Shown here piece after piece: positions 49,741 to 50,278 of a DNA stretch of 64,000 bases. This stretch comes from Escherichia coli 042 (GTDB lineage: Bacteria > Pseudomonadota > Gammaproteobacteria > Enterobacterales > Enterobacteriaceae), in assembly GCF_000027125.1 (NCBI RefSeq), contig NC_017626.1. The stretch is one strand, 5' to 3'. The notes under the pieces are model-generated. The model worked only from the letters and a program-made list of their open reading frames with translations. It was not told the origin of the DNA and did not search any database. The first letter of the stretch is position 1, and every line of letters begins with the position of its first letter. The position numbers and the translations under genes were made by a program.

Positions 49741-49751
49741 GCAATAAAAAA

Positions 49752-49779
49752 GGCGACATGCCAATGTGTCGCCCTTTTC
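49752..49779 (+). terminator. Rho-independent terminator downstream of acrD
   Basis: ggcgaca-tgccaa-tgtcgcc hairpin followed by cttttc, within 40 bp of the acrD stop. Confidence 0.6.
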
Positions 49780-49838
49780 AACTTTCCGATTAAGAACCTG
49801 CTCAGCAGGTTCTTGCTGTTTGTACTTTGTCTCAGGAA

Positions 49839-49898
49839 TTACTTACGAAGCATAACTTCGATAAAGTCTTTCCAGTTCCCCAGTTCACGTTCAATCAT
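49839..49898 (-). CDS. ypfM: Small protein YpfM (19 aa)
   Basis: Minus-strand ATG...TAA encodes MIERELGNWKDFIEVMLRK with an RBS (agaggttgttATG); too short to appear in the ORF track. Confidence 0.6.
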   Translation of the reverse strand: MIERELGNWKDFIEVMLRK

Positions 49899-50278
49899 AA
49901 CAACCTCTCTTATAATTATGGGTATTCTACGGAAACAATATACCGTGGTGAAGCTAATTTACTCGATTGCTGCGATGACTACCTCCGGGGGACAAACCTT
50001 ATGTAAATACTATGGTCCTGCGGTGATGATTTGTATGTGATACACAGCAACATTTCGAGATATTCATACGGCATCTAATACTGATTTAATTCTGGTTAAA
50101 ATACAGACAGATAACAAGATGAATATTCTTAATGTTTACGTTAAAAATGTTTAATATTATTTAATAGTTGTTAATTTGAATACTTCGATAATGTTATATT
50201 TCCTGATAATCATTTGCAGGCAAAATGTTTTCACCCTTAAATGAGTATTTATTCTCATAAATCGAAAAAGGATTCATT

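Follow-up and report, generated by a model that had tools for sequence, protein, structure and literature searches.

Several small proteins of Escherichia coli, among them MntS, MgtS and AcrZ, act by binding a larger protein, and two of these, AcrZ and MgtS, are transmembrane helices. Parts of the acrD–yffB region of the chromosome are likewise already familiar, namely the ypfM gene and its translation, its Hfq-associated transcript and the binding of H-NS and RNA polymerase in the spacer. The YpfM peptide has been observed intact in top-down mass spectrometry, with 100% sequence coverage and an N-terminal formyl-Met, and has been quantified by targeted PRM; the same study detected both YpfM and MntS in low-Mn minimal medium (PMC12529367). 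According to a review, ypfM is the sole down-regulated gene in airborne E. coli (PMC12093975). The literature on Salmonella presents STnc250 as a small mRNA, stable and about 220 nt in length, that is growth-phase dependent and is enriched 4-fold by Hfq co-immunoprecipitation (24 versus 6 reads); the authors who named it pointed out that the ypfM open reading frame is contained in it, and they reclassified it as a small mRNA (PMC2515195). Genomic SELEX performed in vitro has recorded binding of RpoD holoenzyme and of H-NS in the ypfM/yffB spacer (PMC3946193). Among the validated targets of the small RNA SdsR in Salmonella is the yffB mRNA; the yffB reporter used there was built from position −97, corresponding to a 97-nt 5′UTR (PMC5137417).

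We have analysed the acrD–yffB gap within a 64-kb stretch of E. coli DNA, referred to below as the window. We put the probability at roughly 90% that the gap contains two ordinary divergent units: a self-contained small mRNA from ypfM, making a helical peptide, and an AT-rich promoter region for yffB. The features on which this reading is built are as follows, in window coordinates and with the source of each assignment in brackets.

46627–49740, + strand: acrD coding sequence, RND efflux permease (open reading frame list and RefSeq annotation of the identical E. coli locus)
49745–49780, both strands: predicted bidirectional intrinsic terminator, common to the convergent acrD and ypfM (terminator scan and inverted repeat)
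49792–49814, no strand assigned: perfect 11-bp hairpin AAGAACCTGCT/AGCAGGTTCTT in the ypfM 3′UTR (terminator scan and inverted repeat)
49839–49898, − strand: ypfM coding sequence, 19 codons plus TAA, encoding MIERELGNWKDFIEVMLRK (translation, RefSeq 'protein YpfM', NCBIfam NF033843, pN/pS, published mass spectrometry)
49904–49909, − strand: ypfM Shine-Dalgarno sequence GAGAGG, 5 nt upstream of the ATG (sequence)
49924–49952, − strand: sigma-70 promoter P1 of ypfM, TTCACC-17-TAGAAT (promoter scan; conserved hexamers)
49962–49980, − strand: block upstream of P1, GTCATCGCAGCAATCGAG, a CAATC direct repeat followed by TAAAT (alignments)
50009–50055, − strand: composite element GTTGC-N6-TCACA, 21 nt, CATAGT, candidate activator-type promoter P2 (alignment)
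50041–50278, + strand: AT-rich tract upstream of yffB (GC 0.256), with candidate yffB promoters, 5′UTR and ribosome-binding site (composition, conservation, SELEX)
50063–50090, + strand: yffB promoter predicted by the SELEX study, TTCATA-16-TTTAAT (PMC3946193)
50192–50200, + strand: conserved extended −10 TGTTATATT, candidate yffB promoter (25-genome alignment)
50268–50272, + strand: yffB ribosome-binding site AAGGA (conserved in the alignment)
50279–50635, + strand: yffB coding sequence, ArsC-family reductase, divergent from ypfM (open reading frame list and RefSeq)

The gap spans positions 49741–50278, a length of 538 bp, and separates open reading frames of 1037 and 118 codons; its left edge is set by the acrD stop codon. 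The gene order in RefSeq is narQ, acrD, ypfM (on the minus strand), yffB, dapE, ypfN, so that the names acrD, ypfM and yffB assigned by the first-pass annotation are correct and in the right order, and yffB is the first gene of yffB-dapE-ypfN. Several complete E. coli chromosomes are 100% identical across the 538 bases, and of 5426 complete E. coli genomes all but one (5425) carry the acrD–yffB spacer. The gap had been described as markedly AT-rich and long, and both statements hold. Its GC content is 0.344 against 0.534 for the window as a whole, and no other 200-bp segment of the 64 kb is as poor in GC as 50073–50272, which at 0.235 falls more than 5 sd short of the mean (0.534, sd 0.056). 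The lowest-GC stretch of 538 bp in the window also falls in the acrD–yffB gap. At 538 bp, this is the longest interval between long open reading frames in the window, slightly above a REP-filled runner-up of 515 bp at 26839–27353. With ypfM taken into account as a gene, the gap divides into true spacers of 98 bp (acrD–ypfM) and 380 bp (ypfM–yffB).

The first-pass annotation had read in this gap a tiny minus-strand open reading frame with a plausible ribosome-binding site, a description that matches MIERELGNWKDFIEVMLRK at 49839–49898 with its GAGAGG, and had proposed that its reality be judged from the balance of synonymous and non-synonymous change among relatives. A reading frame of 19 codons is by itself not significant; it is conservation that raises it above chance. 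For comparison, we assembled a YffB-anchored set of 80 loci, one per species, ranging from Escherichia to Yersinia, Dickeya and Erwinia, in which YpfM-like open reading frames were sought with tblastn. Such a frame lies upstream of yffB on the opposite strand in 75 of 81 loci, and the 75 relatives' loci together with the window copy make up the set of 76 sequences used below. Among these Enterobacterales loci, an ATG start is found in 76/76 and a stop immediately after codon 19 in 73/76; the 56 distinct DNA sequences encode 23 distinct proteins, and the entropies at codon positions 1, 2 and 3 are 0.21, 0.23 and 0.68. The pooled pN/pS of the ypfM frame is 0.168, the lowest of the six frames. 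In the six-frame control, the second-lowest value (0.346) belongs to the antisense frame, because the two frames have their wobble positions in common, and the remaining four frames exceed 1.3. The arrangement itself, ypfM convergent with acrD and divergent from yffB, recurs in 62 relatives, where 67–220 bp separate acrD from ypfM.

A search of the NCBIfam profile NF033843, small_YpfM (an equivalog), with the 19-residue sequence carrying one appended X, returned 59.2 bits against a cut-off of 33 (E = 2.4e-16), covering profile positions 1–19 of 19. The supposition that small genes such as this are usually missed by ORF callers is outdated for ypfM and does not apply to it, because PGAP uses this dedicated model to name the gene. 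Translation, which had been singled out as a point to verify, is borne out by the published top-down mass spectrometry, with its complete coverage and formyl-Met (PMC12529367). We conclude that ypfM is a real, conserved and translated small-protein gene.

The signals expected of a transcription unit are arranged about the gene. The motif [AT]GAGG occurs within 16 nt of the ypfM ATG in 74 of the 76 loci. Upstream of it, the P1 sequence has −35 and −10 hexamers at a spacing within the 16–18 nt of sigma-70 promoters, at a conserved position, and the genomic SELEX catalogue of RpoD 'constitutive' promoters assigns these same hexamers to ypfM (PMC3946193). Relatives keep the P1 hexamers and the 17-nt spacing while the sequence of the promoter spacer drifts: TTCAC[ACT] is found in 46 of the 76 loci, the 17-nt spacing in 59, and a −10 element ending 24–27 nt from the ATG in 57. 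Initiation is predicted near 49917, and the RNA would then be about 177 nt long. The conserved block just upstream of P1, at 49962–49980, could serve as an UP element or as a site for an activator.

At the other end of the unit, the terminator at 49745–49780 consists of a GGCGAC/GTCGCC stem between an A-tract and a T-tract. This architecture reads as an intrinsic terminator on either strand and can therefore serve both ypfM and the convergent acrD. An equivalent hairpin is present in 75 of the 76 loci, and the stem is maintained among relatives by compensatory changes, from GGCGAC/GTCGCC to GGCGGC/GCCGCC, GCAGCAACC/GGTTGCTGC and GGCAGCCAT/ATGGCTGCC. A second, inner hairpin at 49792–49814 is confined to Escherichia, occurring in E. 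coli, E. albertii and E. whittamii in the alignment, and looks like a back-up terminator for acrD on the plus strand. Folding of the predicted RNA from 49917 to 49741 yields both hairpins, with a z-score of −4.2 relative to shuffled sequences. The earlier description of ypfM as flanked by two hairpins is, however, wrong, because both (49747–49778 and 49792–49814) lie on the 3′ side of the gene, between the ypfM stop codon and acrD. The 3′UTR of ypfM is about 95 nt long and, between the stop codon and the terminator, is unconserved across genera.

These features of the 3′ end bear on the least improbable of the alternatives, that what the locus mainly produces is a non-coding regulatory RNA bound by Hfq, STnc250, in which the open reading frame is incidental or, in a weaker form, a dual-function RNA whose 3′ part pairs with or sponges other RNAs. 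The Rfam model RF01409 (STnc250) does align to the window at 49740–49859 on the minus strand, covering the last seven codons of ypfM, the 3′UTR and the terminator. The score of 34.9 bits (E from about 1e-4 to 2e-5) falls below the gathering score of 42, because of the 24-nt insertion in Escherichia that forms the inner hairpin. At orthologous sites, the model scores 97, 81, 78 and 50 bits in Citrobacter, and just passes in E. albertii (43.1 bits), Enterobacter asburiae (42.9 bits) and E. whittamii (42.3 bits). These matches, running from 42.3 to 97 bits in the relatives, together with the 4-fold Hfq enrichment in Salmonella (PMC2515195) and the terminator with a U-tail at the end of the transcript, a typical Hfq-binding feature, are what recommend the idea. 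Against it stand the strong purifying selection at the protein level, with third codon positions left free, and the detection of the intact peptide (PMC12529367), which between them exclude a purely non-coding role for the transcript. The enrichment, at 24 versus 6 reads, is modest, and STnc250 was moved to the small mRNAs by the very authors who named it (PMC2515195). A second role in base pairing that is conserved is also unlikely because, the terminator excepted, nothing in the 3′UTR sequence is conserved, and there is hence no conserved seed. We regard the regulatory RNA interpretation as decidedly improbable in either form.

Returning to ypfM as a small mRNA with its own promoter, we find a further conserved feature beyond P1. 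Viewed on the plus strand, this consists of ACTATG at 50009–50014 and TGTGA-N6-GCAAC-ATTT at 50036–50055, and the TGTGA is invariant in the alignment of 25 genomes. The minus-strand consensus across relatives is RTTGC-N6-TCACA, 21 nt, CATAKT. In 47 of the 76 loci, ACTATG and TGTGA-N6-GCAAY are separated by 20–21 nt and lie 102–118 nt from the ypfM ATG. Total spacer length in the relatives ranges from 202 to 2327 bp; the distance to ypfM is thus held fixed despite a variable spacer, and the composite element therefore belongs to ypfM and not to yffB. The presence of this conserved element at a fixed distance from ypfM is a small addition to what is known of the gene.

From its sequence, the composite element is probably a second, distal ypfM promoter of the activator type, some 85 nt upstream of P1. 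If the start is assumed to be 7 nt beyond the −10-like CATAGT, the site would be centred at −41.5, a class-II geometry. A start from P2 is predicted near 50002, from which the E. coli transcript would be about 262 nt long. The copy that best matches the Salmonella-derived Rfam model is that of Citrobacter werkmanii, for which the corresponding lengths would be about 232 nt from P2 and about 147 nt from P1; with Citrobacter as a proxy, the Northern band of about 220 nt in Salmonella fits the distal promoter better than P1. The 104 nt between the candidate distal start and the ATG contain no conserved RNA structure (consensus energy −0.9 kcal/mol, no covarying pairs). It is therefore as DNA that this stretch is conserved, a point in favour of P1 being a real promoter, and P1 and P2 may both be real.

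CRP and MarA were each considered as regulators of ypfM and set aside. For CRP at the TGTGA site, only one half-site conforms to the consensus (TGTGA; the other is GCAAY), where two would be required; the match to the 22-mer consensus is 13/22, and the same score is reached elsewhere in the spacer by chance. For MarA, the motif under the Salmonella ChIP peak differs from the E. coli ypfM 5′UTR at 5 of 15 positions, which is too weak a match.

The ypfM gene is on occasion missing from its place beside yffB, as in some Erwinia, in Lonsdalea and at a few other loci. In one E. coli strain, a deletion of 60 bp (49887–49946) has removed the start codon, the ribosome-binding site and the −10 element of P1, and it follows that ypfM can be lost.

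The remainder of the spacer, next to yffB, had been suggested to be a regulatory region bound by nucleoid proteins. That suggestion agrees with the published in vitro SELEX, in which RpoD and H-NS both bind (PMC3946193), and the base composition is what would be expected of H-NS-bound DNA, the 200-bp minimum of the window (GC 0.235) lying here. Alignment of 25 genomes reveals islands of conservation at the ypfM promoter and 5′UTR, the CAATC repeat, ACTATG, TGTGA-N6-GCAAC-ATTT, TGTTATATT and the yffB ribosome-binding site.

Low GC, locally 0.18–0.26 and far under the genome average, and reported H-NS binding (PMC3946193) are equally the marks of horizontally acquired DNA, and the tract might on those grounds be taken for a silenced remnant and not a native regulatory region. 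A spacer at the same position is, however, found across many genera of Enterobacteriaceae; in the relatives its median length is 389 bp and its median GC 0.37, compared with about 0.53 in the surrounding 5 kb. A long AT-rich spacer is thus ancestral at this position, and the DNA was not recently acquired. The tract is present in 5424 of 5426 E. coli genomes, it contains the conserved blocks TGTGA-N6-GCAAY, TGTTATATT and the yffB ribosome-binding site, and no repeats, open reading frames or mobile-element features were found in it. Acquisition from outside is accordingly very unlikely, and we retain the view that the tract is the native promoter region of yffB.

The product of the small mRNA is a hydrophilic peptide in which 8 of the 19 residues are charged, with a net charge of 0 and a mean hydrophobicity of −0.12. 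It contains no hydrophobic transmembrane helix of the kind found in type I toxins or AcrZ, and searches of Pfam, PDB sequences and PADLOC with YpfM gave no match. The hydrophobic moment has its maximum, 0.546, at 100° per residue; only 2.8% of shuffled sequences reach this value. When the residues are placed on a helix, Ile2, Glu5, Leu6, Trp9, Ile13, Met16 and Leu17 fall on one face, with Phe12 at its edge. Met1, Glu5, Trp9, Lys10, Phe12, Ile13, Met16, Leu17 and Arg18 are invariant; on the face, Glu5, Trp9, Phe12, Ile13, Met16 and Leu17 are thus unchanged in all sequences, and Ile2 and Leu6 change conservatively. The most variable positions, 4, 8 and 15, lie opposite the hydrophobic face. Judged from residue periodicity alone, YpfM is most likely a single amphipathic α-helix, the hydrophobic face of which probably docks on a larger protein and modulates it.

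A peptide of this size could also be a regulatory leader or a type I toxin and not a functional peptide in its own right, very small size being typical of both classes. A leader would be expected to precede a gene on the same strand, and ypfM instead runs into a terminator and the convergent acrD. Type I toxins differ from YpfM, which is hydrophilic, without net charge and lacking a transmembrane segment, and no antisense RNA family was found at the locus in the Rfam search. In addition, it is the amino acid sequence that is conserved, beyond codons or length. The chance that YpfM belongs to either class is therefore slender indeed.

Finally, the notion that the true gene and owner of the conservation signal is the antisense open reading frame of 75 codons at 49813–50040 on the plus strand, which exists, has the second-lowest pN/pS (0.35) with wobble positions coinciding with those of ypfM and is free of stops over the ypfM segment in 76/76 loci, is effectively refuted, because its stop-to-stop length varies from 30 to 224 codons among relatives with neither start nor end conserved, so that it is not a conserved gene, and because the peptide identified by mass spectrometry is YpfM (PMC12529367) and the ypfM frame has the lower pN/pS; it moreover crosses a poorly conserved, indel-rich region upstream of ypfM and begins at a TTG with no conserved ribosome-binding site apparent. 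The spacer also carries other small open reading frames of at least 20 aa.

The picture that we favour, then, is of two divergent units. On the minus strand, ypfM would be expressed as a single-gene small mRNA from P1, with a strong ribosome-binding site, the 19-codon open reading frame and a 3′UTR of about 95 nt that is predicted to end in the bidirectional intrinsic terminator held in common with acrD; we infer a second promoter of the activator type about 85 nt further upstream. Its translation would supply a soluble peptide of 19 residues without net charge, predicted to fold as an amphipathic α-helix and to dock on a larger protein through the face formed by Ile2, Leu6, Trp9, Ile13, Met16 and Leu17, with Phe12 at the edge. 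On the plus strand, the AT-rich 240 bp beside yffB, which bind RNA polymerase and the silencer H-NS in vitro, would constitute the promoter and 5′UTR of yffB-dapE-ypfN. Of this picture, the existence, translation and conservation of ypfM and the binding of H-NS and RpoD are documented, by our data or by published work, whereas what is said of the transcription start sites, of the distal promoter and of how the peptide acts is deduction.

A more specific proposal is that YpfM is a helical modulator of AcrD or of YffB/DapE and is switched by an activator acting at the distal TGTGA-N6-GCAAY site. Its basis is the conserved gene order, the hydrophobic face of the peptide and the promoter-like element tied to ypfM, and in this detailed form we consider it speculative and unlikely to be correct. 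YpfM is among the shortest validated bacterial proteins, and its conservation extends from Escherichia as far as Yersinia and Dickeya; the invariant residues, the amphipathic face and the distal promoter-like element provide handles for finding its partner and its regulator.

Comparison of the locus with described systems places it as follows. With YpfM of E. coli (b4606; NF033843) there is identity in all respects, the 19-residue sequence, the position between acrD and yffB and the RefSeq annotation being the same, with no difference. STnc250 of Salmonella lies at the orthologous position, and its Rfam model spans the 3′ end of ypfM, the 3′UTR and the terminator; the window copy differs in scoring below the threshold, and whereas the family name implies a non-coding RNA, the transcript is an mRNA. 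The ypfM/yffB spacer is named among the 'type-A spacers' of Shimada et al. (2014), which it resembles in being divergent, AT-rich and bound by RpoD and H-NS; the H-NS binding known for it is that of SELEX in vitro. As a protein, YpfM resembles the class of MntS, MgtS and AcrZ in being shorter than 50 residues, in having its own promoter and terminator, and in having an mRNA that is Hfq-associated or condition-dependent. Unlike AcrZ and MgtS, which are transmembrane, it is hydrophilic and amphipathic. Set beside the pairing of AcrZ with AcrB, a pairing of YpfM with AcrD would be its soluble counterpart.

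Comparison of the ypfM–yffB region across species revealed conserved blocks upstream of the two genes, among them the following.

50009-50055, minus strand: composite element, RTTGC-N6-TCACA followed after 21 nt by CATAKT, conserved across species
49962-49980, close to the -35 element of ypfM on its upstream side: direct repeat of CAATC and then TAAAT, kept across genera
50192-50200, approximately 80 nt ahead of the yffB start codon: TGTTATATT, an extended -10 form, conserved

The composite is placed 102–118 nt from the ypfM ATG in 47 of the 76 species, and this distance is fixed even though the length of the ypfM–yffB spacer ranges from 202 to 2327 bp. 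It contains only one CRP-like half-site. The element is laid out like a class-II activator-dependent promoter and is a candidate for one. Transcription from such a distal promoter would account for the size of the transcript in Salmonella, approximately 220 nt, better than transcription from the proximal one. The block adjoining the -35 element takes the form of a palindrome, CCAAT-N7-ATTGG, in some species, and could be either a UP element or a transcription-factor site.

A 60-bp deletion, equivalent to 49887-49946 of the window, is present in E. coli Z1323HEC0009 (locus L082, NZ_CP148398.1) and removes ypfM codons 1–4, the ribosome binding site and the -10 element of the proximal promoter, P1. 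This strain is a natural ypfM knock-out; despite the deletion, PGAP calls ‘ypfM’ here, under a different protein accession. The length of the YpfM ORF is slightly altered at three further loci. It is 20 aa in the two Yersinia loci (L070 and L076), and in the Lelliottia locus (L034) a K19N change is accompanied by reading beyond the usual stop. The Yersinia protein scores 32.1 bits, narrowly below the NCBIfam cut-off of 33, so that automatic annotation would miss the gene; in this genus, ypfM and yffB lie approximately 1.5 kb apart.

Rfam matches above the gathering scores occur elsewhere in the window: three tandem matches to the REP-derived naRNA4 (RF02564) at 26919-27299, inside a GC-rich 515-bp gap (26839-27353), and one to ES036 (RF02751) at 5592-5634.

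On the yffB side, TGTTATATT is kept across Escherichia, Citrobacter and Enterobacter and is a candidate yffB promoter, distinct from the one predicted in a SELEX study (PMC3946193), TTCATA-16-TTTAAT at 50063-50090. In Salmonella, the small RNA SdsR represses yffB mRNA, as validated with a GFP reporter (PMC5137417); the Salmonella yffB segment from -97 to +75 corresponds approximately to 50182-50353 of the window and, by analogy with this repression, the AT-rich yffB leader may carry a small-RNA pairing site.
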